NCBI GenBank assembly: GCA_031262105.1
Contig: JAISIH010000083.1
Location: 3,219 to 67,218, forward strand
DNA length: 64,000 nt
Origin: Ruminococcus sp.
GTDB taxonomy: Bacteria > Bacillota > Clostridia > Oscillospirales > Ruminococcaceae
Reading direction: 5' to 3'
The notes under the pieces were generated by a model, which worked only from the letters and a program-made list of their open reading frames with translations, was not told the origin of the DNA and did no database searches. This document shows positions 3,045 through 64,000 of this stretch, piece after piece. The stretch's first letter is position 1, and the number at the start of each line of letters is the position of its first letter. Both the position numbers and the translations under genes were made by a program.

Positions 3045-3413
3045 ATGGCAAGAATCGCCGGTGTTGACCTTCCCAAGGCAAAGCGCATTGAGTACGGTCT
3101 AACTTATATCTATGGCATAGGCGTGAGTTCGTCACGGAAGATTTTAGCGGCTGCGGGAGTTTCGCCCGATACCCGCGTTAAGGACCTTTCCGAAGATGAA
3201 GTCGGCAAAATCAGAGCAGAGATTGACAAGGATTATACCGTTGAGGGCGACCTTAAACGTGAAGTCCAGCTCAATATCAAGAGGCTTGTTGAGATAGGCT
3301 GTTATCGCGGAATCCGCCACAGAAGGGGTCTCCCCGTTCGCGGACAACGCACAAAAACAAATGCACGTACCCGTAAAGGTCCGGCTAAGACTATCGCTAA
3401 CAAGAAGAAGTAA
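3045..3413 (+). CDS. rpsM: 30S ribosomal protein S13
   Basis: [10 protein letters not shown] start, an [25 protein letters not shown] segment near the C-terminus, and operon position. Confidence 0.95.
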
Positions 3414-3430
3414 AGGAGTGAGTACACTAA

Positions 3431-3838
3431 TTGGCACAGGTAAAAGCAGGTGCGAAACGTGCAGTATCGCGCAAACGCCGCGAAAAAAAGCACATCGAAC
3501 AGGGACACGTTCACATTCAATCCACCTTCAATAACACTATCGTTACCATAACCGACGTCCGCGGGAACGCTATTTCTTGGGCTTCCGCCGGAGGAATGGG
3601 CTTTAGAGGCTCGCGTAAATCGACTCCGTTCGCGGCACAATCGGCAGCAGAAACCGCCGCTAAGGGTGCTATCGAACACGGGCTTAAATCGGTTGAAGTT
3701 TTCGTAAAAGGTCCCGGCGCGGGGCGTGAAGCGGCAATAAGAGCTTTACAGACGGTTGGGCTTGAGGTTCGCCTTATCAAAGACGTTACCCCGATTCCTC
3801 ACAACGGTTGCCGTCCCCCGAAACGTCGTCGTGTGTAG
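3431..3838 (+). CDS. rpsK: 30S ribosomal protein S11
   Basis: [15 protein letters not shown] and [13 protein letters not shown] motifs. Probable TTG start. Confidence 0.95.
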
Positions 3839-6449: not shown

Positions 6450-8843
6450 ATGCCGAATGATCCGATTGGATATAAATTGACCTTCTGTAAAAAGCTCTCA
6501 GCGCTTGATAACCCTGTACCCGGTGTGGCATTTGAATATCTAACATTGGCGCACTTCGATGGGATTTTTATAAATGAAATAAAGTGCGTTAGTGATTATA
6601 AAAAGACGTGTTCGGACATCCTACAAGATGGAATAAAGTGGGGCGACCTAACAGCCGACAAACAGAATAAGTTAAATTTTCTTGCGCATTGCGAAAAACA
6701 GGTCGTAAATATCATAACAGAAAACGTCAATAATGATGTGTTAAGTAATCACGATATGCCGATTATGGTGGTCACACTTTTAAATTTCAGTGATGAAAAC
6801 AATTGCAGAAGCCAAAAAATAAATAGTATAAAGAATGCTCTCCAGAATTATATCGGAAATTTAAGTGTCGATTTTGGGGTTTATATGCCGCTGTCTATAG
6901 AGGATTTAGCAATTGTTTTTAAATCCTATACTCTTGAAAGTATTTTAAAGCTTATTACTAATCTAAGAAATCACAAATGTTTTGCTGACGTTATGAATAT
7001 GTATTCCGTAATTTCTTTAGACACAAATTCTGATAAACCCGCTCAGATCGAGGAAATTAACACTTATATAAAGATTCAGGCGGTTCCCCCGACAAGTTTT
7101 CGCGAAATAGCAGATAATTTACCTTCGGTTACGCCGATTGGTGAAGAACGTAATTATAATGACACTAAAGTTGCGGTCGGAAAATATGATATGTATCATA
7201 GAATATCCATAAAAAACACAATGAACTATTATTTTAATTTATACAGAAATATTCTTGATACAAATTCATGCATTTCAAAAAAGTTAGGCGTGTTATCCAC
7301 AGAAACTATAGTAATTAAACCGCTTAACGAGAGCGGTGAAAAAAATCATTTTACCAACCAATTTGCATTTAGCGGAAATATCAATAAACAAAAAAGTTGG
7401 AATGAATGGTATAGACGATTCGAAGAATGTTGGAATAAAGAGTGGGACAAAGGTAATAAAAGTGAAACTAAGAAAAAATATAAAGAATGGTTCCCTACTC
7501 TTTATAAATTTTCTGGTATGCTTAGTGGTCGTGCTCATCGTATATCACACGCTGTTTCTTCTTATAAGTATTTCGAACCATTTTGGGAATTTATTTCTGA
7601 AATAACGAAATTTATTCCGGAATTTATAAAGAGTGAATCAAAAAGAGAAAACTATAATCGCAGCGTTCTAACTGTAAGTGATGAAATCAGATCATTGATT
7701 ACCGGAATTGACGATGTCTTTTCGACGTCTTTCCATGATTTTGAGCAATCGCAAAAAGATGGGTTATGCGTTCACTCTGCCGGAAAGCTTATGGTTGCAT
7801 ATCGGAATTTTGCTGAATTTTTAGGTAATCAATTATTATCTGTTATAGGTCACGACGGTAGACACATTTATTTTTCAATTGTTTCAGCAATAACAGAGAC
7901 CACAAAAATAAACAGATATGACATTAAAGAGAATAAAACGAATAATACATTCTTAACAATACATATGCCGTTTTCAAATATTTACGATTTTCGTGCGGCG
8001 ATTTTTAAGATTTGCCATGAAATTGGGCATTTAATATACGTCACTGATGCTGAAAAAAGCAGATTCAAGGATATATGTAATGAAGGATTAGAGATAGAGA
8101 GTATTAGATTCAGTAATCCCAAAATAGTACATCAACTTAATAAAATACTTGATGAATTTTACGAGGAATTCGCTGCTGATTACTATGCAATTAAAATATT
8201 AGGGCTTGATGTTCTTTATAGTGATCCAAAGCACGATAAAGATGCTGTTTTGAATCAAATTCAAGAAATATTCATGACTGAACTTAATGATAAACAACGA
8301 GCCGGCGTTAACCTTCGATTCCAAGGTATTCGTTTACTCTTACGCCTTCAACCAATGCTAATAAGGGACAAAAAACATGATTTAAACTTAGACAGTTTAA
8401 TAGCTTGGGCGTATCAACCATCTGATGTAATACAAGAACTACTTAATTCCGTAGCCGAAAATGTTATCCCGGTAATTGGGCAGGTAGGTAGCGCCTCTGT
8501 TATTGTTAAAGAAGCAGTAAAATATGCAACTGACGTTAAAAATGTAGAAGAGTTTATTTACCTCAATACGAATATTAGTGAAAAGATTTTTTCTCCGGCA
8601 GCTCTTTACATTTTAAGGCAAAATGAAGATGTAAAATTAATAAATGACATATATACGATCTTAAATAAAAATAAAAAAGAAAATTCAGAATTTCCTTTTC
8701 AAAATCAAATTAACTTTTTCAAAAGCTATAGGGAGCATTTCTTTGATTATAGAAGCGGGAGCTCTTCATATCGAGATGATGTTGTTCCATTTCGAGATTT
8801 TTTGTTAGCCTTTACCGAGCGCAGAAAATACATAGAACTATGA
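6450..8843 (+). CDS. Large (797 aa) hypothetical protein with an HExxH zinc-metallopeptidase-like module (ImmA/IrrE, M78-like), encoded on a low-GC island
   Basis: Long uninterrupted ORF in strongly A/T-rich DNA. HEIGH lies at nt 8016..8030, and EEFAADYYA at nt 8163..8189 about 49 aa later, resembling the HExxH...ExxANxFA signature. No signal peptide or TM segment is evident. Confidence 0.7.
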   Translation: MPNDPIGYKLTFCKKLSALDNPVPGVAFEYLTLAHFDGIFINEIKCVSDYKKTCSDILQDGIKWGDLTADKQNKLNFLAHCEKQVVNIITENVNNDVLSNHDMPIMVVTLLNFSDENNCRSQKINSIKNALQNYIGNLSVDFGVYMPLSIEDLAIVFKSYTLESILKLITNLRNHKCFADVMNMYSVISLDTNSDKPAQIEEINTYIKIQAVPPTSFREIADNLPSVTPIGEERNYNDTKVAVGKYDMYHRISIKNTMNYYFNLYRNILDTNSCISKKLGVLSTETIVIKPLNESGEKNHFTNQFAFSGNINKQKSWNEWYRRFEECWNKEWDKGNKSETKKKYKEWFPTLYKFSGMLSGRAHRISHAVSSYKYFEPFWEFISEITKFIPEFIKSESKRENYNRSVLTVSDEIRSLITGIDDVFSTSFHDFEQSQKDGLCVHSAGKLMVAYRNFAEFLGNQLLSVIGHDGRHIYFSIVSAITETTKINRYDIKENKTNNTFLTIHMPFSNIYDFRAAIFKICHEIGHLIYVTDAEKSRFKDICNEGLEIESIRFSNPKIVHQLNKILDEFYEEFAADYYAIKILGLDVLYSDPKHDKDAVLNQIQEIFMTELNDKQRAGVNLRFQGIRLLLRLQPMLIRDKKHDLNLDSLIAWAYQPSDVIQELLNSVAENVIPVIGQVGSASVIVKEAVKYATDVKNVEEFIYLNTNISEKIFSPAALYILRQNEDVKLINDIYTILNKNKKENSEFPFQNQINFFKSYREHFFDYRSGSSSYRDDVVPFRDFLLAFTERRKYIEL

Positions 8844-10121: not shown

Positions 10122-10829
10122 CTACACATTTTTATTTACGATCTTGTCTTGGTATGTTCCTGTCGCAATGTCAATATACCTTACAAAAAGGGAGATTTTA
10201 TTCGCTTCGTTTAGGTTATCCCACAAGCCCTGTGTAAATTCGCCGATGTCGTCGGGGATAGAAATTGCCGTCGGTTCGCCGGAGAAAACCTCAGGCGGGT
10301 TTCCGTCGCACTTATATGTATGGATAAAATGCCCGGTTCCCGCTACTGCCGGCTTGTATGTAAATAAGAAGCGATTGCAGGATTCGGGGTTGCCGCTTGC
10401 AGATTTTAGGATTGAGAGGGCATAGTTAAAATTATTATTCGTTAGCCTTATAATCCCGGAAATTCGCGGGGTATAGATCGGGGGGTCGGGTTCAAATTCC
10501 CGGCATTGTAAGCTTTCTTCAAAGGTTTTTTGAGCGTCGAGCCCGTTATAGATTGTGTCGGTCTGGTCGCCGTTCGTGACTATGGTCTTGTTCCCCAAAA
10601 CGCGAACGGCGTTATAGATTACAAGGCTCGGGTCGGACATCTTCGACGGGTCGAAAGCCTCTGTGCGTATGCCGTCGGCGGTTTTTACGAAGATTCTGTT
10701 GCGGCTGTTTTCACTCCTACCCATGATGAAATAGGCGGTTACAGCGTGCTTGCCGTCAGGGGTTGCTCCTATAATTATACCACGCCCGGGATAGCTATTA
10801 TTTGCAAGTAATTCTTTTATATCCTTCAT
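10122..10829 (-). CDS. IMP cyclohydrolase, PurO-like (archaeal type)
   Basis: About 235 aa, immediately upstream of the formyltransferase-only purH. N-terminal YPGRGIIIG-type sequence. The start is set at MKDIKEL (10829), so it does not overlap peptide gene P1. Confidence 0.7.
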   Translation of the reverse strand: MKDIKELLANNSYPGRGIIIGATPDGKHAVTAYFIMGRSENSRNRIFVKTADGIRTEAFDPSKMSDPSLVIYNAVRVLGNKTIVTNGDQTDTIYNGLDAQKTFEESLQCREFEPDPPIYTPRISGIIRLTNNNFNYALSILKSASGNPESCNRFLFTYKPAVAGTGHFIHTYKCDGNPPEVFSGEPTAISIPDDIGEFTQGLWDNLNEANKISLFVRYIDIATGTYQDKIVNKNV

Positions 10830-10845
10830 TTTTACCTTCTTTAAT

Positions 10846-11145
10846 TTACCAAGCCGCTTGATTCTGGCAGAAGAGTTCCTTTGTTTCCTCATCGAACACA
10901 CTCTTCATGCAAAGGCGGCATAGGCGGTTTTTATTATTAATGTTTGCCGCGTCGAAGTATTCGCAGGTTTCTGCTTTTTCGTTCGGGACGAGTTTATATT
11001 TGGGACCGTTGCAAAAAAGCCCGCCGCCCGTAACCGCGAGGTTTTCAAGCTCTTCGTCCGAAAGGGTTATGTATTTATCCGCCTGTTCGTCTGTAATTTC
11101 TATGCCGCGTTCACGCGCTTTCGCGATTAGTTCATCCTTTTTCAT
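10846..11145 (-). CDS. Array member P1: long-leader double-glycine Cys-rich precursor peptide (99 aa)
   Basis: Leader MKKDELIAKARERGIEITDEQADKYITLSDEELENLAVTGG. The core has C, CEYF, CRLC and C, and ends QAAW. Own GGAGG RBS. Confidence 0.8.
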   Translation of the reverse strand: MKKDELIAKARERGIEITDEQADKYITLSDEELENLAVTGGGLFCNGPKYKLVPNEKAETCEYFDAANINNKNRLCRLCMKSVFDEETKELFCQNQAAW

Positions 11146-11166
11146 GACGATACCTCCATGTAAATT

Positions 11167-11523
11167 CTACCAAGCTTTTTTATTAGTACAGAAGAGTTCC
11201 CCTGTTTCCAGATCGCGCGAACTACTTTTGCAGGCGCGGCATACGCGGGTTTCATTAAAAATGCTTGCCGAGTCGAAGTATTCGCAGTTTTTTGCCCTTT
11301 CGTTCGTGACCGGCTTAGAAAAGGATTCGCCGCAAATGTCCGCGCCGCCGACGATGTTTTCGAGTTCTTCGTCCGAAATAGACGAGTGCTTTATAACTCT
11401 GCCGCCCGAAACGGCGAAGCCTTCAAGCTGTTCATCCGAAAGCACGGAAAATTTCTCCGCCTGTTCGTCTGTGAGAGTTATGCCGCGTTCCGCCGCTTTT
11501 TTTATAAGTTCTTCCTTTTTCAT
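11167..11523 (-). CDS. Array member P2: precursor with two consecutive double-glycine leader motifs (118 aa)
   Basis: MKKEELIKKAAERGITLTDEQAEKFSVLSDEQLEGFAVSGG, then RVIKHSSISDEELENIVGG, then a core with C, CEYF, CRAC and C, ending KKAW. The start is taken at ATG 11523; the track begins at 11538. Confidence 0.75.
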   Translation of the reverse strand: MKKEELIKKAAERGITLTDEQAEKFSVLSDEQLEGFAVSGGRVIKHSSISDEELENIVGGADICGESFSKPVTNERAKNCEYFDSASIFNETRVCRACKSSSRDLETGELFCTNKKAW

Positions 11524-11544
11524 GATGCCGCCTTTCAAAAAGTT

Positions 11545-11862
11545 TTAGTCCGGGTAAGCTTCCTTGCTCTGACAGTAGCAGTATGAGTATTCAAGCCCGC
11601 GAACGGTGCGTTCTTTGGTATAGCAGTGCAGACAATAATTGCATTTGACCGGGTCGCTGTCGGTCGAGTCCGCTCTCCTTACGAAGTATGCGCAGGTTTT
11701 TGCTTCATTTGGGGCAACTCTTTTTCCGTCCTCGCCGCAGCCGCCCGCTACCGCGAGGTTTTCAAGCTCATCGTCCGAAAGGGTTATGTATTTATCCGCC
11801 TGTGTCTCGTCAATCGCTATGCCGCGATCACGCGCCTTTTTAATAAGGTCGTCTTTTTTCAT
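11545..11862 (-). CDS. Array member P3 (105 aa)
   Basis: Leader MKKDDLIKKARDRGIAIDETQADKYITLSDDELENLAVAGG. Core: C...CAYF...CNYCLHC...CYC. Confidence 0.8.
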   Translation of the reverse strand: MKKDDLIKKARDRGIAIDETQADKYITLSDDELENLAVAGGCGEDGKRVAPNEAKTCAYFVRRADSTDSDPVKCNYCLHCYTKERTVRGLEYSYCYCQSKEAYPD

Positions 11863-11880
11863 GATAAAAACCTCCTGTGC

Positions 11881-12198
11881 TTACATATAATTAGAATATA
11901 CGCCTATTTTGCAGTAACAATAGCTCATAGGATATGCGTAAACCCTTTCACTATGTTTGCACGAAAGACAGGTACCATCGTTCTCGTCGTCTTTTTTGCT
12001 GTAACTGGAACAGCGTTTTCCCTTGTTTACATCCTCAACTCTTACGCTGCCTTTCGACGGTTGGCATCGATCTATGCCGCCCGCAACCGCTAAGTTTTCA
12101 AGTTCTTCGTCGGAAAGGGTTATGTATTTGTCCGCCTGTGTCTCGTCGATTTCTATGCCGCGTTCACGCGCCATTTTGATAAGGTCTTCTTTTTTCAT
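11881..12198 (-). CDS. Array member P4 (105 aa)
   Basis: Leader MKKEDLIKMARERGIEIDETQADKYITLSDEELENLAVAGG. Core: C...CSSY...CLSC...CYC. Confidence 0.8.
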   Translation of the reverse strand: MKKEDLIKMARERGIEIDETQADKYITLSDEELENLAVAGGIDRCQPSKGSVRVEDVNKGKRCSSYSKKDDENDGTCLSCKHSERVYAYPMSYCYCKIGVYSNYM

Positions 12199-12214
12199 CT
12201 GTTTGTCCTCCTTC

Positions 12215-12532
12215 TTATTGCCACGCTTCCGCGCAGAGGCAGTAATTTTGTACTATGGGGATATCAAGACTCGGCATCAGGGTTATTGTATCAAAGTGAG
12301 TGCAATAGGTGCATTTTAGCCCTTCATTCGACGGCTTCGCGCTGACAAATTTAGTACAGGTTTGCGCGTAGTTAATATTGTCGAGTTTGTGTCTGTATTT
12401 TTCGTTGCAACCCCCCGCGACCGCAAGGTTTTCAAGCTCGTCATCCGAGAGGGCTATGTATTTATCCGCCTGTGTTTCGTCGATCGCTATGCCGCGTTCA
12501 TGTGCCTTCTTGATAAGGTCTTCTTTTTTCAT
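12215..12532 (-). CDS. Array member P5 (105 aa)
   Basis: Leader MKKEDLIKKAHERGIAIDETQADKYIALSDDELENLAVAGG. Core: C...CTKF...CTYC...CLCAEAWQ. Confidence 0.8.
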   Translation of the reverse strand: MKKEDLIKKAHERGIAIDETQADKYIALSDDELENLAVAGGCNEKYRHKLDNINYAQTCTKFVSAKPSNEGLKCTYCTHFDTITLMPSLDIPIVQNYCLCAEAWQ

Positions 12533-12556
12533 GAAAAATCCTCCTTTATTAATAGC

Positions 12557-12835
12557 TTAAAAAGTTCTTAACTGCGGGTCATGCTCCCAGCCTTTTTCTG
12601 CGCAGGTATGCACCCCGGACACATCTTTAATGTTCGGGCAATTTGTGCAGGTTGAAGTCTTCCAAAACTTCGCTTCGGTTATGCCTTGCGAACACTTTTC
12701 AAGGCAATAATCAGGACCTCCGCCGGCGATGTTTTCAAGCTCTTCGTCCGAGAGGTTTAGGTATTTCTCTGCCTCTGTCTCAGTCAGGGTTATTCCGCGA
12801 GCGGCGGCTTTTTTTATCAGGTCTTCTTTCGTCAT
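12557..12835 (-). CDS. Array member P6 (92 aa)
   Basis: Leader MTKEDLIKKAAARGITLTETEAEKYLNLSDEELENIAGGG. Core: CLEKC...CTNC...C. Confidence 0.8.
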   Translation of the reverse strand: MTKEDLIKKAAARGITLTETEAEKYLNLSDEELENIAGGGPDYCLEKCSQGITEAKFWKTSTCTNCPNIKDVSGVHTCAEKGWEHDPQLRTF

Positions 12836-12850
12836 GATTTCCCTCCGCGC

Positions 12851-13072
12851 TTATACATTTTTTGTACAATGATAGGTAGTGGCTTTGCCGAAACAACCTG
12901 CGGCTTCTACGTAAATGTAGGTGCAGTTATCGCACAGACGTTCGCTGGTCCCCGGCTTCGGCTCGAAGTATTTGCAGTTCTCCGCGATGTCGAATTTAAC
13001 TACAACCCTGTTTGCCCCCGCAGATATGTTTTCAAGTTCTTCATCGGAAAGGTTAATGTTTTCTTTTTTCAT
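12851..13072 (-). CDS. Array member P7: truncated leader (73 aa)
   Basis: MKKENINLSDEELENISAGA lacks the N-terminal helix and has Ala-Gly-Ala (ISAGA) instead of GG at the predicted site. Core: CKYF...CDNC...C...C. The start is set at 13072 to avoid overlap with P8. Confidence 0.7.
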   Translation of the reverse strand: MKKENINLSDEELENISAGANRVVVKFDIAENCKYFEPKPGTSERLCDNCTYIYVEAAGCFGKATTYHCTKNV

Positions 13073-13085
13073 AGTCAAAACCTCA

Positions 13086-13385
13086 CTAATTCCAAGCTTC
13101 TTCAAGGGTACACCAAAGGCTTGAGAGTGTTTCGGAGTCTATCCTTGCGTGGGAGCAATTGCCGCAAATTTGGACAGATCTCTTCGGATCGAAGACACTG
13201 TAGTAACGGCAAGTAAGTGCCTTGTTCCCGTCCGTTATTTCTTTTTTGAAACCGCAGAAGCCTCCGCCCGCTATGTCGAGGTTTTCGAGTTCCTCATCGG
13301 AGAGGTTAACGTACTTCTCCGCCTGTTCCTCGGTTAAGGCTACGCCCTGTTCTGCGGCTTTTTTTATAAGGTCGGACTTTTTCAT
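13086..13385 (-). CDS. Array member P8 (99 aa)
   Basis: Leader MKKSDLIKKAAEQGVALTEEQAEKYVNLSDEELENLDIAGGG. Core: C...CRYY...CGNC...C, ending EEAWN. Confidence 0.8.
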   Translation of the reverse strand: MKKSDLIKKAAEQGVALTEEQAEKYVNLSDEELENLDIAGGGFCGFKKEITDGNKALTCRYYSVFDPKRSVQICGNCSHARIDSETLSSLWCTLEEAWN

Positions 13386-13421
13386 AGCAAACCTCCTTTT
13401 AGTTAACCGGTGCTGTCCGGG

Positions 13422-13715
13422 TTATGCCCTGTAAGTTTTTATGACTGTCATCATCTGATCGCAATGCACAACGGTTGATATCGGTCTGCCGAGGCTATCG
13501 CAGGCACCATAATAGGGAACCTTTATCATCTTTTCCCCGCAGATTTCGCAAATAATATCCATATAAGGTTCAGTGCAAATATCATCCACAAGTCCGCCGC
13601 CGCCCACAATGTTCTCAAGCTCTTCTTCCGAAAGGTTTATGTACTTCTCCGCCTGTTCGTCGGTGAGGGTAATTCCGCGCTCACGCGCCTTTTTTATAAG
13701 GTCTTCTTTTTTCAT
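13422..13715 (-). CDS. Array member P9 (97 aa)
   Basis: Leader MKKEDLIKKARERGITLTDEQAEKYINLSEEELENIVGGGG. Core: C...CEIC...C...C. Confidence 0.8.
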   Translation of the reverse strand: MKKEDLIKKARERGITLTDEQAEKYINLSEEELENIVGGGGLVDDICTEPYMDIICEICGEKMIKVPYYGACDSLGRPISTVVHCDQMMTVIKTYRA

Positions 13716-13729
13716 GGTTTACCCTCCTG

Positions 13730-13957
13730 TTAATTCCACGCTTCTGCGCAGGTGCAATAAAGGCTGCTCGAGGTTCGTTTTACCTTTTTACAGCGGTCGC
13801 ACTGCTTATAATTTCTTTCTATGTCGGTTTCGTAGTAACTGCATTTTTCCGCTTCATAGCCCATGACATACTTATTAAATTTAACCGCCCCGCCCGAAAC
13901 GGTTAAGTTTTCAAGCTCCTCTTCCGATACAGCCGGTTTTTGTGCTTCTTTTTCCAT
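13730..13957 (-). CDS. Array member P10: second leader class (75 aa)
   Basis: Leader MEKEAQKPAVSEEELENLTVSGG. Core: CSYY...CDRC...CTCAEAWN. Confidence 0.75.
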   Translation of the reverse strand: MEKEAQKPAVSEEELENLTVSGGAVKFNKYVMGYEAEKCSYYETDIERNYKQCDRCKKVKRTSSSLYCTCAEAWN

Positions 13958-13978
13958 AAGTTTACCTCCGATAAAATA

Positions 13979-14272
13979 TTACACATTCCGTGCGAATAAA
14001 ACCATTCTGTTAACTTCGGTATTTGAGCAGAAAATCTGCCCGGTTTCATAATTACCGTAGTAGTCGCACGACCAGCAGTTTTGCTTCACGCCCGGCGTCG
14101 GATTTGCCCCGTGCCACTTGCCGCATATCATTCCGGCAGTATCGGCGTTGTTTATCAAGACAAACGAATCGTCGTACACCATCTCTCCGAATGCAGGAGA
14201 GCTCCCTGCGCCGCCGGCAACTGCGTCAAGCTCTTCTTCCGATACAGCCGGCTTTTGCACTTCTTTTTCCAT
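13979..14272 (-). CDS. Array member P11: second leader class (97 aa)
   Basis: Leader MEKEVQKPAVSEEELDAVAGG. Core: C...CWSC...C. The start is set at ATG 14272 (GGGAGGG RBS), 20 nt after the purN stop. The track ORF extends into purN. Confidence 0.7.
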   Translation of the reverse strand: MEKEVQKPAVSEEELDAVAGGAGSSPAFGEMVYDDSFVLINNADTAGMICGKWHGANPTPGVKQNCWSCDYYGNYETGQIFCSNTEVNRMVLFARNV

Positions 14273-14292
14273 GGTTTTACCCTCCCGTATTT

Positions 14293-14871
14293 CTATAACT
14301 TCGCACAAAGTTTTTCTACCGCTTCCGGCAGGATGACCCATTCTGCCTCTTCCATGACGCGTCTCTGTAACGTCTCGGGGGTGTCATTGTCCCTTACCTC
14401 GACCGCCTTTTGTGCCAGAATCGGTCCGCCGTCACATTCGGGCGTTACAATATGCACTGTCGCGCCGGTTATCTTTACGCCGCGTTTTAAGGCTTCTTCA
14501 TGCACCTTTAAGCCGTAATATCCGACGCCGCAAAAACTCGGGATTAACGCCGGGTGGACATTAACTATCCGCCCCTTGAAAACCGCGCAAAAGCTGTCGT
14601 CGAGGACTGTCATAAACCCCGCGAGGACTATTACGTCGATATCCTGCTCCAAAAAAAGCTGTATAAGTTCTTCGGAATAACTTTTGCTGTCGGGGAAATT
14701 CTTGCGCGGGAGGGTTAACGTCTTAATCCCGGCGTTCTCGGCGCGGGTTAAGGCAAAAGCCCCCTCCTTGCTCGAAACAACAAGAACAATCTCGCCGCTT
14801 TTTAGCTTATAGTCAATGAGTGCCTGTAAATTCGTTCCCCCGCCCGAGACCAAGACCGCTATTCTTTTCAT
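14293..14871 (-). CDS. purN: Phosphoribosylglycinamide formyltransferase
   Basis: MKRIAVLVSGGGTNLQALID start, NVHPALIP motif, position after purM. Confidence 0.9.
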   Translation of the reverse strand: MKRIAVLVSGGGTNLQALIDYKLKSGEIVLVVSSKEGAFALTRAENAGIKTLTLPRKNFPDSKSYSEELIQLFLEQDIDVIVLAGFMTVLDDSFCAVFKGRIVNVHPALIPSFCGVGYYGLKVHEEALKRGVKITGATVHIVTPECDGGPILAQKAVEVRDNDTPETLQRRVMEEAEWVILPEAVEKLCAKL

Positions 14872-56805: not shown

Positions 56806-57630
56806 ATGAGCGAAAAATTTGTAACAAAACCAAGTAATGACGCTATTTTCAAGCTTTTATTTGTCCAGAATATTGACCTGCTTCAAGACTTTTTATCTAA
56901 CGCACTTGATATGCCGTTTGATGATTTTAGGGACATAACGATAATGAATCCGGAACTTTCGGGAATTGTTGCCGGTGAAAAAATCTCGGTTCTTGACATC
57001 TTGGTTAACAAGCCGGACGGCACAAAACTTAATATTGAAATGCAAAACTGCGACGAGGGCGACTTTAAGGAACGTTCGGTTTATTACTGCTCGAAGCTAT
57101 TTATTAAGAACTTTTTAGCGGGACAAAGCTACAACGAACTGCCGAAAACAATCTGCATTAATATTTTACAGTTTACCCTCTTTAAAAAAGCCGGTTATAA
57201 ATGTTCGGCTTTCCCGACAATTACCGAAACAGCGGAGGCGATAACGGATTTATGGCAGATACTATATTTCCAACTGCCGAAACTCGATGATGAAATAAAG
57301 CGTGAAAAAGCACAGCATATACTTGAGTGGTTGAAATTTTTCACCGTGAAAACTAAGGAGGACATTAAGGTTATGAAGGAAACAAGTAAAGATGAATACG
57401 TCATAAAAGCTCTTGAAAAGGTTGAACTCATGAACGAAGACGAGAAGACCAGAAGATTAGCCGAGGCACGCGAAGAAGCAATACTCAGAGAAAAATGGAT
57501 TCTCGGGGCGGCAAAAAGGGAAGCTGTTTTTGATGTTGTAAGAAATATGTTTTCTTTAGGATTGTCAACAGACATAATTGCAAAGTCTACCGGTGTACCT
57601 CTCTCCGAAATCGCAAAACTTCAACATTAA
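56806..57630 (+). CDS. Rpn-family (YhgA-like, PD-(D/E)xK) recombination-promoting nuclease / putative transposase
   Basis: N-terminal pattern NDAIFKLLF...DFLSNAL...SVLDILV...GTKLNIEMQ is typical of the TIGR01784 / YhgA-like family. Confidence 0.7.
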   Translation: MSEKFVTKPSNDAIFKLLFVQNIDLLQDFLSNALDMPFDDFRDITIMNPELSGIVAGEKISVLDILVNKPDGTKLNIEMQNCDEGDFKERSVYYCSKLFIKNFLAGQSYNELPKTICINILQFTLFKKAGYKCSAFPTITETAEAITDLWQILYFQLPKLDDEIKREKAQHILEWLKFFTVKTKEDIKVMKETSKDEYVIKALEKVELMNEDEKTRRLAEAREEAILREKWILGAAKREAVFDVVRNMFSLGLSTDIIAKSTGVPLSEIAKLQH

Positions 57631-59197: not shown

Positions 59198-59276
59198 AAA
59201 TTTTTATTTAAGTTTTGCCGGTTTTGTACGACAATATTAATTGAGACAGGATTTTTCCGAATGAGGTTGTGATTTA

Positions 59277-59573
59277 ATGCAAAATAATCCAGTAGCGAAC
59301 AGTTTTATAACCAACGCTTTAAGCGGTTATAACAAAATATCTGCGAAACGCCCGGAGCGGGCGGGGAACACGCCGAAGCGGTCTGATGTGTTCGTTTTAA
59401 GCTCGCAGACAGATATTACCGAGAAGGTTACCTACGCCGCGAACGATATCGCTTCCGGCATACGCGCCGCCGACGATTCCGCTAAGGCTGAGGCTATAAA
59501 AGCGAAGATAAAGTCAGGCAATTATAACGTCTCTGCCGAAGAGGTTGCGAAGTCGATTTTAGGTATAATTTAG
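59277..59573 (+). CDS. flgM: Anti-sigma-28 factor FlgM
   Basis: 98 aa. C-terminal IKAKIKSGNYNVSAEEVAKSIL is typical of FlgM. Located upstream of flgN/flgK. Confidence 0.75.
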   Translation: MQNNPVANSFITNALSGYNKISAKRPERAGNTPKRSDVFVLSSQTDITEKVTYAANDIASGIRAADDSAKAEAIKAKIKSGNYNVSAEEVAKSILGII

Positions 59574-59611: not shown

Positions 59612-60055
59612 ATGAATATTGATTATAATGCCGGTATAAAGTTTCTTGAGGGCTACGCGTCGCATTTTGAGGCGCTTGAAGCGACGGAGCTTAAAAAGCT
59701 TCGCCTCATGCACGACAAAAAGCCTGAGGCTGTCGCTAACCTTATCCCCGACGAGCAGGCACTGATAATGAAATCCGACATTTTAGAGCGAAACCGCGTT
59801 AAAATTTTCGGCGCGAAAACCCTTGACGAGATTTATGACACCGCGCCGGGGAGCTTAAAAACAGATTATATGCGCCTCACAAAGCGTATCCGAAACGCAG
59901 TTAAACAGATTCGAGACTTAAACGAAGTAATAAAGCTGATGGCGACCGAACGCCTAAAACGCGCAAAGCGGGCGAACAAACAGCTTGAGACATACGACGA
60001 ACGCGGCTCGGTCAGCACAAAGTACAGAAACAATTTACCTGATATAAAGGTGTAG
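59612..60055 (+). CDS. flgN: FlgN-like flagellar chaperone
   Basis: 147-aa helical protein between flgM and flgK. Called on position. Confidence 0.5.
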   Translation: MNIDYNAGIKFLEGYASHFEALEATELKKLRLMHDKKPEAVANLIPDEQALIMKSDILERNRVKIFGAKTLDEIYDTAPGSLKTDYMRLTKRIRNAVKQIRDLNEVIKLMATERLKRAKRANKQLETYDERGSVSTKYRNNLPDIKV

Positions 60056-60064
60056 GAGTTTATC

Positions 60065-62239
60065 ATGCCAAGTAGTTTCATGGGTTTATATGTTCAGAGG
60101 GAAGCTCTTCTTTCTGCTCAAAAATCGCTCGATATAACCGGCAACAACCTCTCGAACTTAGAGACGGTCGGTTATACCCGTCAGCGTGTCGATATGGCTT
60201 CCGTCTCGAACAGCACTTCTAACCTCGGCTACAATTCCGCCCGCGGGCTTGCCGGGCAGGGTTCTGAAATCGTCGGCATTGCCCAGATTCGTGATGCCCT
60301 CCTTGACACAAAATTCCGCAACTACACCTCCGATTTTTCTAATTCGGACACGAAGGTCGGGATGTTAGAGCAGCTTGAAGATGCCCTTGATAACCTTGAG
60401 TCGGACGATACCGGCTTCATGAGTGTTATTGCCGGGCTTAAGAAGGCTTTACAAGGCTATTCTTCCGACAACGCCGACAGACGGGAGCTCGGAACAATTG
60501 TTATGAATAACGGGCGTTCGGTTGCAGATATGCTCCGTGCGCTTGATTCGCGTATTACCGATATTTCAAGCCAAACAATTTCGGAGGCAACACACGCCGC
60601 AGATACCGTTAACACAACCCTTGCCCAACTCGCGGCACTAAACGATTCGATTAAAACCTCATATATTAATATGGGTTACATAGAACTCGGGCAAAACAAC
60701 TACACCGTTCAGAGCGACTACGGTCCCCTTGAACTCAAGGACAGCTTCAATTATCTTCTCGACACCCTCTCGGAATACGGCGACATAAACGTTACCGAAC
60801 ATGACGACGGCTCTTATACAGTTATGCTCGGCGGACACGTTGTTGTCGCGAATGACCAGTACGCACAGGTTGCGTTCCGCGATAAGAGCTTTGATATCCC
60901 GACAGTTCCGCGTGCGGCAGGTTCGACGCCGCTTAACGATGCTCAAAAGGCAGAGCTTGCAAACCCCGACCCGGGCGATTTGCAGCTTGTTGTCCTAAAC
61001 GCCGGGGTTAAAGACCCGAACACCGGGAAATACACAGGACTTAAAAACACCGACGAATGGCAGGATCTCGAAAAATTCCTCTATAACATGAGGAAGACGA
61101 AGGACGATTTCCTTCGCGGAGACGGCGAAATTGTCTTTGATACGGCATCAAGCGATCCGCTTACGAGAAAAGTATCGGAAAAATGGGAAAACCATCAGCT
61201 TGATGATATAACCGACAACGTTACCGGCGTTGAGTCCGGCGGACTACGCGGGCTTATAGACCTCTTTAACGGACGCGGAACATTCGCGGCGGAGGGGGAG
61301 AACGCCTACGAGGGCGTGGAATACTTCCGAGGGCTTGTTAACAGCTATGCGAAGACTTTTGCCGACGCCATGAACGGTATCTACAACAAAGACGACCACA
61401 GCACCTACACAGGTTTTGACAACGACGACCCGCAAGTTCTCTTTAACTACAAATACCGCTACTATTATACCGATGCGGCGGGGGAGAGACAGGATGCTTC
61501 GTATTTTATCGACGTTGACGGAACGCTTGCCTCCGACAGGTTCGGTTATAGTTCCGACAGGGAGCTTGCGACAAACACGTATTTGCAGGTTACGGACGGC
61601 AACGGCAGGGCGGTTAACGTCTTCGACATTCCCGAAGTTGCGGCGGATATAAAGACGCTTGTTGACGGCGGCGGAACGCTTGATGGGGCGGGCTTGCAGA
61701 CGATTATTGACACCTACCTTGCCGGCGCGGGGATCACAGATCCGCGATATGCCCTTATGGTACGCGAAACCGGCGCGCTCGGGGCTGCGCTTGATACAGA
61801 CACAGTTACAGGCGTTGCGGGTTCGATGGAAGTTACCGCCTTCTGGCAGAATAACGCCGAATTTATCTCAAACCCTGACGGTTACGACGAAGGCTCTGCC
61901 CTCGATAACACATGGATAAACCGTATGCTCGGCGCATTCAACGTCAAGCACGCCTACGCCGGGAACGCCTCGACCTATCAGTTTGAAGAATTCGTTTCGC
62001 ACTACGGGAACGAACTCGGCAACCGTATTCAATACGAAAAGAAGCTCTCCGGGACGTCCGAGGTTATGCTCCTTTCCGTCACAGACCTGCGCGACTCTGT
62101 CATGGGGGTTAACGTTGACGAAGAGGGTATCAACATGATGAACTACCAAAAATGGTACAACGCCATTGCGCGTATGACGACAGCCCTCGATGAAGCCCTC
62201 GACAAGCTTATCAACGGCACCGGTAGAGTTGGACTATAA
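60065..62239 (+). CDS. flgK: Flagellar hook-associated protein 1 (FlgK)
   Basis: N-terminus SFMGLYVQREALLSAQKSLDITGNNLSNLETVGYTRQRV. C-terminal YQKWYNAIARM-type helix. Confidence 0.9.
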   Translation: MPSSFMGLYVQREALLSAQKSLDITGNNLSNLETVGYTRQRVDMASVSNSTSNLGYNSARGLAGQGSEIVGIAQIRDALLDTKFRNYTSDFSNSDTKVGMLEQLEDALDNLESDDTGFMSVIAGLKKALQGYSSDNADRRELGTIVMNNGRSVADMLRALDSRITDISSQTISEATHAADTVNTTLAQLAALNDSIKTSYINMGYIELGQNNYTVQSDYGPLELKDSFNYLLDTLSEYGDINVTEHDDGSYTVMLGGHVVVANDQYAQVAFRDKSFDIPTVPRAAGSTPLNDAQKAELANPDPGDLQLVVLNAGVKDPNTGKYTGLKNTDEWQDLEKFLYNMRKTKDDFLRGDGEIVFDTASSDPLTRKVSEKWENHQLDDITDNVTGVESGGLRGLIDLFNGRGTFAAEGENAYEGVEYFRGLVNSYAKTFADAMNGIYNKDDHSTYTGFDNDDPQVLFNYKYRYYYTDAAGERQDASYFIDVDGTLASDRFGYSSDRELATNTYLQVTDGNGRAVNVFDIPEVAADIKTLVDGGGTLDGAGLQTIIDTYLAGAGITDPRYALMVRETGALGAALDTDTVTGVAGSMEVTAFWQNNAEFISNPDGYDEGSALDNTWINRMLGAFNVKHAYAGNASTYQFEEFVSHYGNELGNRIQYEKKLSGTSEVMLLSVTDLRDSVMGVNVDEEGINMMNYQKWYNAIARMTTALDEALDKLINGTGRVGL

Positions 62240-62254
62240 ATATAGGTGGTTAAT

Positions 62255-62503
62255 ATGAAAGAAAAAATGCTTACCGAAGAAGAAGCCGAAAAGGTTGTCG
62301 GCGGTTGTCCGGACCCTTCCGGTATGTCGTTCCTTAATACTTCACAGATGGTCTGCGATAATTACATTACCCGTCCGGGACTATACGCCGACCCCTCGAA
62401 AGCCCCGCGAATGTGTAAATACTGCACCCATCTAAAGAATAATATCATAGAGGGAAAACAAACTTACTATTGCGAACACGCACAAAATCCGCGCTATATT
62501 TAG
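62255..62503 (+). CDS. Short-leader double-glycine Cys-rich peptide F1, between flgK and flgL (82 aa)
   Basis: Leader MKEKMLTEEEAEKVVGG. Core: C...CDNY...CKYC...C. AGGTGG RBS 15 nt after the flgK stop. Confidence 0.7.
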   Translation: MKEKMLTEEEAEKVVGGCPDPSGMSFLNTSQMVCDNYITRPGLYADPSKAPRMCKYCTHLKNNIIEGKQTYYCEHAQNPRYI

Positions 62504-62512
62504 GAGCCTTTT

Positions 62513-62770
62513 ATGAAAGAAAGAATGCTTACGGAAACTGAACTCACGGGGATTGTCGGCGGCATTAATCCCGTGGTTTTCGGCGAAATCAGTATGTCAA
62601 GAACAGAGCTTGCGCATCTTGTTTGCGACAATTACCAAAAGCGAATGGGCGTTATGGGGGAAGGCGGCGCCCCGAACAGCTGCAAAACCTGCTCTTTGCC
62701 GAAGCCCTCGTCCGGTCAAAGCGGCATTGTTTACATCTGCGGCAACGCATTAAACCAACGTCCCGTATAA
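62513..62770 (+). CDS. Short-leader double-glycine Cys-rich peptide F2, between flgK and flgL (85 aa)
   Basis: Leader MKERMLTETELTGIVGG fits LSxxELxxIxGG. Core: CDNY...CKTC...C. AGGAG RBS. Confidence 0.7.
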   Translation: MKERMLTETELTGIVGGINPVVFGEISMSRTELAHLVCDNYQKRMGVMGEGGAPNSCKTCSLPKPSSGQSGIVYICGNALNQRPV

Positions 62771-62784
62771 AAGGAGCTTACATC

Positions 62785-64000
62785 ATGGGAATGAGAATAA
62801 CCCAGCGCATGACTAACCGTATGTATCAGCGCAACAATAACCTCACAATGACAAACCTCTCGAACGCTTACAAGAGGATTATTACGCAGGCTAAATACAC
62901 GCGCAATTCCGAAAGCCCGCTTAATTCCGAAAAGGCAATGTCGATCCGCAAGGGGCTTCGCGAGCTTGACACGTGGGACGACAATATCTCGACCGCTCAC
63001 GAGCTTTTTACGACGGCGGAATCGAGCCTTTCGCAGGTTGCCTCAAACCTCTTTACGCTAAAGGTTAAGCCGCTTCTCGTTCAGGGTTCGACAACGACCG
63101 TCGGCGACGTCGGCATGGCGGCTGTCGGGACACAGCTGCGGCAGACGGCGGAGGAAATGGTTGACGCCATGAACGCCGATTTTAACGAACGCCAGATGTT
63201 CGGCGGTTTATCACAGAACAAAACGCCGTTTACGATAGTTAACATAAGGGGTGCAAGCACCCTCACAGACGACCTTACAGCAGACGGAACAGTTTTAGCG
63301 GCGCAGAATTACGTGCAAGGTCCGGACGGCAGGATTTATCGCGAAGATGACGGCTATACGATAAGTGCGGGCAATGAACTTCTTGACCCGGACGGAAATG
63401 TTGTTATAGATTCCGCCGGATACCCGGTCGCTGCCGCGGGATGGACTTACGGCGAACTTGTAGAAGTACCCGGCGGGGTTGCACAAGGCGTATGCTACAA
63501 CGATATTTTAATGACGACTATAAAAGAGGGTGCGGACGGGTTATTCTACGGAACGCGGATTAACGACGACGGCACTCAGACCGAAGATGAACTCGTACCC
63601 GGGCAGGGGCAGGTTCTCCTTGATATAGGGCTCGGCATTGAATTCGACACGAATTTGAACGTTAACCCGAATACGGCTTTCGACACAGCTATGCACGGCT
63701 TTAAAATCCTCGGTTATGGCGTTGACCACGAAGGCTACGCGACAAACCTCATTCAGTTAACCCTCGATGCGGCGGCGGTTGCCGAGCAGGGCGACATTAA
63801 AAATGTTGAGCTGCTCTCGACATATATCGACAAAACCGATGAAGCTTCGACAAACATCAGGACGTTTATTACAGAACTCGGTGTTCGTTACACCTCCCTC
63901 GACTACTACACAACAAAAAACGAAGACTCCCGCACCGCCCTCATGGACCGACAGTTAACCGTCGAAGGCACCGACATCTACAAAGAGATTACCGACTATT
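62785..64000 (+). CDS. flgL: Flagellar hook-associated protein 3 (FlgL), partial: runs off the window end
   Basis: Not in the ORF track because it has no stop in the window. My hand translation from ATG 62785 gives MGMRITQRMTNRMYQRNNNLTMTNLSNAYKR... and later ...ELGVRYTSLDYYTTKNED. The frame stays open to position 64000. Confidence 0.85.
   Translation, partial: MGMRITQRMTNRMYQRNNNLTMTNLSNAYKRIITQAKYTRNSESPLNSEKAMSIRKGLRELDTWDDNISTAHELFTTAESSLSQVASNLFTLKVKPLLVQGSTTTVGDVGMAAVGTQLRQTAEEMVDAMNADFNERQMFGGLSQNKTPFTIVNIRGASTLTDDLTADGTVLAAQNYVQGPDGRIYREDDGYTISAGNELLDPDGNVVIDSAGYPVAAAGWTYGELVEVPGGVAQGVCYNDILMTTIKEGADGLFYGTRINDDGTQTEDELVPGQGQVLLDIGLGIEFDTNLNVNPNTAFDTAMHGFKILGYGVDHEGYATNLIQLTLDAAAVAEQGDIKNVELLSTYIDKTDEASTNIRTFITELGVRYTSLDYYTTKNEDSRTALMDRQLTVEGTDIYKEITDY

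Follow-up and report, generated by a model that had tools for sequence, protein, structure and literature searches.

Two small genes stand between flgK and flgL in the late flagellar gene cluster of a Ruminococcus sp. metagenome-assembled genome (MAG; GenBank assembly GCA_031262105.1, contig JAISIH010000083.1), and the question they raise is what they encode and why it should be made alongside the flagellum. Throughout, the window is the whole 64,000-nucleotide stretch analyzed here, positions 3,219 to 67,218 of the contig's forward strand, and coordinates count from its first letter unless another locus is named. The genes, called A and B (locus tags LBM59_07930 and LBM59_07935), had been picked out in a first-pass annotation as two 82-85-residue open reading frames (ORFs) with good ribosome-binding sites, wedged between genes that are normally adjacent. 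Their coordinates (Table 1), the gaps of exactly 15, 9 and 14 nt that separate flgK, A, B and flgL, and the successive ribosome-binding sites AGGTGG (62244-62249, before A), AGGAG and AAGGAG were all confirmed. We argue that A and B are genuine genes for predicted exported-peptide precursors, of which the molecular type is familiar, the cargo family new, and the promoter-less embedding in housekeeping operons unusual.

The two products are 39% identical (E = 3e-14), and the genes form a 258-nt tandem duplication in which the best-kept DNA is the ribosome-binding site together with the leader (71% over 68 nt). Four additional homologues came from a word-indexed search covering 5.8 billion proteins. 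HMMER, run exhaustively against 1.84 billion cluster representatives, gave only three true clusters and found the family nowhere else among those proteins; a fourth match in the profile search, P0009, was rejected as spurious, being a Cys-free repeat protein. Each homologue on a readable contig lies directly 3' of flgK, and 5' of flgL where the contig reaches that far: the order is FlgK-B-FlgL in locus L001, FlgK-A-B-FlgL in L002, FlgK-A-B followed by further sequence in L003, FlgK-B in L004 and FlgK-B'-FlgL in L005, where B' is a divergent form of B. A genome scan anchored on FlgL added L010 (genome Hm464_bin138), whose slot holds a fourth type of peptide, D. No further relative of type D turned up in the protein database; against the slot profile the type D core by itself reaches 14.5 bits, higher than any of 2000 shuffles.

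Seven of the eight loci of this Ruminococcus clade (the window, L001-L005 and L010) have the slot filled, with one to three peptide genes and a flgK-flgL distance of 285-625 nt; orthologues of A occur in L002 and L003, and orthologues of B in L001-L004. The eighth, L011 (Hm464_bin41), is the most divergent relative (FlgL 64% identical, against 80-83% between the window FlgL and the full-length proteins of L001 and L002) and has flgK and flgL 13 nt apart with no insert. An initial metagenome scan anchored on the FlgL N-terminus found nothing, and one anchored on the FlgK C-terminus recovered 57 further, more distant loci (33-61% identity), their sources including human gut and termite gut. In 53 of them flgK and flgL could both be located; none of the 53 has a slot peptide, and in 52 the two genes are 11-76 nt apart. 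Slot peptides occur in this clade only, and all homologues come from one JGI sample, 3300042599 (for the array family described below, one Logan run as well). The label Hm464 denotes a termite-gut metagenome MAG series, and the scope of what follows is one uncultured clade, apparently from a single termite-gut metagenome.

Pairwise ratios of nonsynonymous to synonymous substitution (dN/dS) are 0.26-0.57 for A and 0.24-0.46 for B, compared with 0.06-0.12 for the 3' end of flgK and about 0.05 for the 5' end of flgL, and dS reaches about 1. Purifying selection thus acts on the peptide genes, though less strongly than on flgK and flgL, and we have very little doubt that A and B are real genes.

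The leaders of the 11 slot peptides follow one pattern, M-x-x-K-x-L(-12)-[TSN]-acidic-acidic-[EQD](-8)-[LVIA](-7)-x-x-[VI](-4)-x-G-G, with the double glycine at residues 16-17, or at 18-19 in the third type, C, where the leader is shifted by two. Leu occupies position -12 in 10 of the 11 peptides, Glu, Gln or Asp position -8 in 10, and Val or Ile position -4 likewise in 10. These leaders fit the double-glycine consensus L(-12)xxxE(-8)L(-7)xxxxGG of the transporter PCAT1 and its substrate CtA; for this pair, residues -7 and -12 are described as a hydrophobic knot seated on the C39 peptidase domain, with -4 as the position that adjusts specificity (PMC6959990). The first-pass annotation had called the leaders of A and B double-glycine leaders, the second a near-perfect LSxxELxxIxGG, and this call now extends to every member of the slot family.

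Behind the leader, each of the 11 peptides has a cargo of 64-68 residues (~7 kDa) with cysteines at about 20/40/43/59, at 1, 17, 37, 40 and 56 in A and at 21, 40, 43 and 59 in B, set in the scaffold C-D-N-Y ... C-x-x-C ... [YI]-C. The cargos are slightly basic, rich in Gly, Pro, Ser and Asn, and contain 0-2 GxxxG motifs. Within the B orthologues the Cys domain is the better-kept part (88% identity, against 50% for the leader). Between paralogous slot types the order is reversed, with 41-65% for the leader and 18-34% for the cargo.

The expression context points to the flagellar cluster as the source of the transcript. Upstream of flgM, cross-species footprinting revealed two promoter-like blocks (Table 1) that are invariant in the window, L001, L005, L010 and the insert-less L011, where the 8-nt spacer varies freely. 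The blocks read TAAG-N16-CGACAATA and resemble the sigma-D/sigma-28 consensus TAAA-N15/16-(G)CCGATAT, so that the late flagellar cluster is probably served by a sigma-28-type promoter here; a search with the strict sigma-D pattern TAAA-N13-17-CCGATA gave one irrelevant match and was set aside. The + strand has no terminator-like site in 62.2-62.8 kb, promoter-like matches within gene A are weak and do not exceed what chance predicts (9 against 5.6 +/- 2.2 expected, whole region), and an Rfam search of 58.7-64 kb gave no match. The gene order shared by the window and its relatives is that of the late operon of the Bacillus subtilis type, flgM-flgN(yvyG)-flgK-flgL-yviE-fliW-csrA, and in L010 the cluster continues flgL-DUF6470-fliW-csrA-fliD-fliS, with DUF6470 being YviE-like. 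Co-transcription of A and B with the late flagellar genes, as proposed in the first-pass annotation, is the simplest reading because no terminator or strong promoter isolates them within a late cluster headed by a conserved promoter, and we infer that it is very probable.

Taken with the leader, this arrangement suggests a route from transcript to exported peptide. A and B would be lineage-restricted precursor genes, derived by tandem duplication and without a promoter or terminator of their own, translated from a flgM-flgN-flgK-A-B-flgL transcript that would start at the sigma-28-type promoter and in relatives run on to DUF6470-fliW-csrA-fliD-fliS. In this scheme Leu-12, Val/Ile at -4 and the hydrophobic residue at -7 would seat the leader, as a short helix, on the C39 domain of a peptidase-containing ABC transporter whose gene lies elsewhere in the genome. 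Cleavage after Gly-Gly by this transporter would be followed by extrusion of the unfolded cargo, the fold of which would then be locked extracellularly by its four cysteines, through disulfides or a metal. Lacking regulation of their own, A and B would be expressed as the late flagellar transcript is, and peptide output would thus track the late, motile stage of flagellar assembly. Export by the double-glycine route is likely, whereas the whole chain of exported-peptide precursors, cut at Gly-Gly and with output tied to the late flagellar transcript, has about an even chance of being correct, and it is doubtful that the coupling to motility is adaptive, as opposed to a tolerated hitch-hike. 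The mature peptide would most likely act outside the cell, in a bacteriocin-like or signalling manner, and not as part of the flagellum.

The leader puts the slot peptides with the double-glycine substrates, and CtA with PCAT1 is the nearest mechanistic analogue. CtA, the PCAT1 substrate in Clostridium thermocellum, comprises a 24-residue leader and a 66-residue cargo (PMC6959990). Both systems involve a Clostridia polypeptide with an N-terminal leader matching the same consensus, and the cargos are close in length (66 against 64-68 residues); they differ in that the leader here has 17 residues, that there is no detectable sequence similarity, and that the four-Cys scaffold and the flagellar-operon location are particular to the slot family. 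A profile search of the PDB gave nothing relevant, returning only heme-motif stretches of hydroxylamine oxidoreductase at E = 0.03, which were judged to be chance matches since the peptides lack CxxCH. CtA is encoded beside its transporter, whereas no transporter lies within 64 kb here.

Several observations weigh against the export model. The ORFs of the 64-kb window include none for a C39 peptidase, an ABC exporter or a modifying enzyme, and neither do the fetched loci, L010 among them; the exporter would therefore act in trans, and this is the main gap in the model. Position -7 holds Leu, Val or Ile in 8 of the 11 slot peptides and Ala in two type A peptides (those of the window and L003), and a Leu(-7)Ala change reduced the binding of CtA (PMC6959990). 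The cargos are hydrophilic (grand average of hydropathy -0.13 to -0.70) and lack any membrane-like segment, in which they differ from typical class II bacteriocins of the pore-forming kind, and the slot has no room for an immunity gene. No curated double-glycine leader model (PF10439, PF04369, PF03047, NF046113) reaches its cut-off, and the structure of B predicted with AlphaFold has a predicted local distance difference test score of 44 from a 6-sequence alignment and 49 from a 43-sequence alignment, too low for a confident fold.

Family searches link the peptides to class II bacteriocins and double-glycine pheromones at scores below threshold only. A matches no Pfam or NCBIfam family at E <= 1, B matches the BLP_Lacticasei leader model at E = 0.017 and NF046113 at 15.1 bits (cut-off 40), and sub-threshold matches of family members comprise six to Bacteriocin_IIc (PF10439), five to Lactococcin and one to ComC (E = 0.0035-0.14). 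The likeness to these systems, ComC/BlpC included, lies in the type of leader, in adjacent pairs as in two-peptide bacteriocins and in the diversification of the cargo between strains. The slot peptides differ in their sub-threshold matches and hydrophilic cargo, in the frequent occurrence of B alone, and in having no immunity, transporter or regulator gene nearby and no promoter of their own, inside a housekeeping operon. Nor are the slot genes obligate pairs of the class IIb kind, since B, B' or D stands alone in L001, L004, L005 and L010. In the literature searched, no report connects the flgK-flgL interval with double-glycine peptides or bacteriocins.

The same window carries a second set of related genes, a tandem array within the pur operon (Table 1). 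In other loci too the array always occupies the slot between purN and IMP cyclohydrolase, with 6-20 copies, and the array family is confined to sibling MAGs. Its leaders are longer than those of the slot peptides and weakly Nif11-like, and its cores have the C...CxxC...C scaffold of the slot. Profile-profile comparison of the full-length families gives 91.6% probability (E = 8e-7) with the four cysteines in register; with cores only, the score of 23.7 (E = 2e-4) exceeds 200/200 column shuffles, the probability is 45% and Cys1 falls out of register. Given this drop and the slip of Cys1, kinship between slot and array is plausible and, if real, distant; type D gives no signal against the array profile. 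The first-pass claim that the slot cores repeat the scaffold of the pur array is upheld by the full-length alignment and has to be softened to distant kinship by the cores. Among four incomplete genomes, LBM59, LBL80 (Hm464_bin171) and LBL98 (Hm464_bin138) have both array and slot peptide, and in LBM41 (Hm464_bin41) the slot is empty and no array match is found, as expected if both depend on shared machinery encoded elsewhere.

The array also bears on what the flagellar location means. The first-pass annotation had offered two hints, co-regulation of peptide release with motility or a structural or regulatory role at the flagellum. Nothing shows a role of the second kind, and the same family is present in 12-20 copies within the pur operon of the same genomes, so that embedding in housekeeping operons looks like a habit of the family and not something specific to the flagellum. 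The first hint is the better of the two, and it depends on the inferred co-transcription and on an exporter that is out of sight.

A flagellar function is nevertheless the substance of one alternative, in which A and B would be cytoplasmic, zinc-ribbon-like metal-binding accessories or regulators of FlgK/FlgL export or assembly, for example with FlgN, and the double-glycine leader an uncleaved relic. The slot between the junction genes is kept over saturating synonymous divergence, the Cys domain of B is highly conserved, some array relatives match zinc-ribbon models (PF09723, and weakly other Zn-ribbon/Zn-finger models), and FlgK and FlgL are longer in genomes with the insert (718-724 and 420-433 residues) than in L011 (609 and 358). 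The size correlation, however, rests on one insert-less genome, too few for inference, and the slot peptides have a single CxxC and two lone cysteines where a zinc ribbon has two CxxC knuckles, with no significant zinc-ribbon match for A, B or D. None of these three matches a flagellar model in Pfam or NCBIfam either (FlgN, FliS, FliT, FliW, FlaG, DUF6470/YviE and others), which leaves A and B outside the known flagellar accessory families that the first-pass annotation had named as the contrary outcome. Moreover, the leader pattern is kept in every type, where a relic would decay; the slot turns over, with A optional and B', C or D replacing B, which is unusual for a fixed structural partner; and the family is amplified in the pur operon, unconnected with flagella. 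We regard an accessory function as unlikely.

The second alternative keeps export and adds a step before it: the peptides would be precursors whose cysteines are enzymatically modified (radical-SAM thioether or lanthionine) in the manner of prochlorosins, with one remote enzyme serving many precursors. The comparison applies chiefly to the array, which shares with the Nif11/NHLP libraries (prochlorosins, TIGR03798) many paralogues, a conserved leader ending in GG, variable cores and remote machinery. Array leaders are 72% identical and the hypervariable cores 23%, there is a weak Nif11-like leader match together with weak matches to lantibiotic leader families, and the precursors are encoded apart from any machinery. 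Against this stand the array scores to TIGR03798 of 12.6-15.6 bits (best E = 0.014), far under the cut-off of 32.3, and the slot peptides A and B, which have no long leader and no match to that model; the cores are long (64-68 residues in the slot) with a fixed Cys register, in contrast to the free placement of cysteines in prochlorosins, and no radical-SAM gene or LanM-like lanthipeptide synthetase is seen in any fetched locus. Modification before export is thus improbable in our judgement.

Export could also be imagined through the flagellum itself, with A and B as late flagellar type III substrates, like FlgM, FlgK and FlgL, secreted uncleaved through the growing structure. The genes do lie among those of late export substrates and the FlgN chaperone, and the peptides are similar in their small size to FlgM. 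There is also a partial precedent in Campylobacter jejuni, where non-flagellar proteins are co-expressed with or exported by the flagella, among them the Feds, products of genes dispensable for the flagellum that are expressed with late flagellar genes through sigma-28 (PMC9856085). The Feds would share with A and B this dispensability for flagellum building and late expression, and differ as unrelated proteobacterial proteins that are not double-glycine peptides and are not encoded between flgK and flgL. A type III substrate is very unlikely here: the leader fits the double-glycine consensus of ABC exporters position by position, whereas flagellar export needs no such motif, and the pur operon holds an expanded set of paralogues that share the GG signature. 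From the want of a database family or structure model one might also suspect that the flgK-flgL spacer is simply unusually long, with A and B as spurious ORFs or annotation noise inside it. This can be dismissed given dN/dS well under 1, the constancy of length, leader and Cys register over seven loci, the good ribosome-binding sites and tight packing, and outgroup spacers that leave no such room.

With exported double-glycine peptides as the preferred reading, the significance of the locus lies in its setting. Double-glycine peptides are normally found in self-contained clusters with genes for their own exporter, immunity and regulation, and here is a conserved case without regulation of its own. 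If export is confirmed, it would represent a simple and unusual tie of peptide secretion to the flagellar assembly checkpoint, and would mean that genome mining by gene-cluster context misses whole families. A broader and rather improbable idea is that promoter-less exported-peptide cassettes colonize slots in essential operons, so that their release would report the state of the producer (purine hunger, or a flagellum just completed) to its termite-gut neighbours, the flgK-flgL pair being a motility-gated signal or weapon; in a stronger version still, the cargo would attach, from the extracellular side, to the enlarged surface domains of FlgK and FlgL.

Table 1. Positions of the genes and elements discussed; numbers refer to the window except where another locus is given.
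Feature	Position	Strand	Basis or remark
Sigma-28/sigma-D-like promoter 5' of flgM	59207-59236	+	TTTAAGTTTT, 8-nt spacer, TGTACGACAATA
flgM (anti-sigma-28 factor)	59277-59573	+	PF04316 at 7.5e-8; TIGR03824 at 4e-7
flgN-like chaperone gene	59612-60055	+	PF05130 at 1.7e-5, under gathering score; position kept in all loci
flgK (hook-associated protein 1, 724 aa)	60065-62239	+	TIGR02492 at 1e-49; FlgK_D1, Flg_bb_rod, Flg_bbr_C
Peptide gene A (82 aa)	62255-62503	+	MKEKMLTEEEAEKVVGG...; leader 62255-62305 (17 aa, GG), 65-aa cargo
Peptide gene B (85 aa)	62513-62770	+	MKERMLTETELTGIVGG...; leader 62513-62563 (17 aa, GG), 68-aa cargo
flgL (hook-associated protein 3)	62785-64000, past window end	+	TIGR02550 at 4e-21
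IMP cyclohydrolase-like gene	10122-10901		Flanks the array
Tandem array of ~13 GG-leader four-Cys peptide genes	10846-14341	-	Between purN and IMP cyclohydrolase-like gene
purN	14293-14871		Flanks the array
Array in L006	5893-11964		purN/IMP cyclohydrolase slot
Array in L008	3231-8225		purN/IMP cyclohydrolase slot
Array in L009	2-2167		purN/IMP cyclohydrolase slot
Array member with two leader modules	11167-11538	-	...LSDEQLEGFAVSGG-RVIKHSS-ISDEELENIVGG-ADICG...
797-aa ORF beside pur operon	6450-8843	+	No Pfam family at E <= 0.01
PD-(D/E)XK nuclease-family transposase-like gene	56806-57630	+	PF12784 at 1e-41
FlgK in L011	4158-5987		Without a central segment
FlgL in L011	6001-7077		Without a central segment

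Further features of these loci were recorded alongside the peptides. In L003 (705-836) a second copy of the gene B 3' end (35 nt, 91%) precedes a leftover piece of the 3' end of flgK (24 nt at 88%, then ...GGGTAGGGTTATAATATG), after which comes the type C gene, and in L002 (1285-1415) the 3' end of gene A is present three times; these junction duplications are either recombination scars of cassette exchange at the end of flgK or mixed-strain assembly artefacts. Locus L057, an unrelated termite-gut contig and the one outgroup locus of the 53 with a spacer longer than 76 nt, was considered as a second case of a filled slot and rejected: its 277-nt spacer (3253-3529) consists of three ~79-nt direct repeats without a peptide gene, each repeat having a 29-residue ORF (MKLNKRITLER...) that is not a double-glycine-leader peptide.

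In the pur operon, transcription has to cross 3.5-6 kb of peptide genes before it reaches the pur genes downstream. The array member with two tandem leader modules looks like an internal duplication of the double-glycine leader. The transposase-like gene lies about 1.6 kb 5' of the flagellar cluster, directly 5' of a Lactamase_B-SPOUT gene pair that precedes flgM in all relatives.

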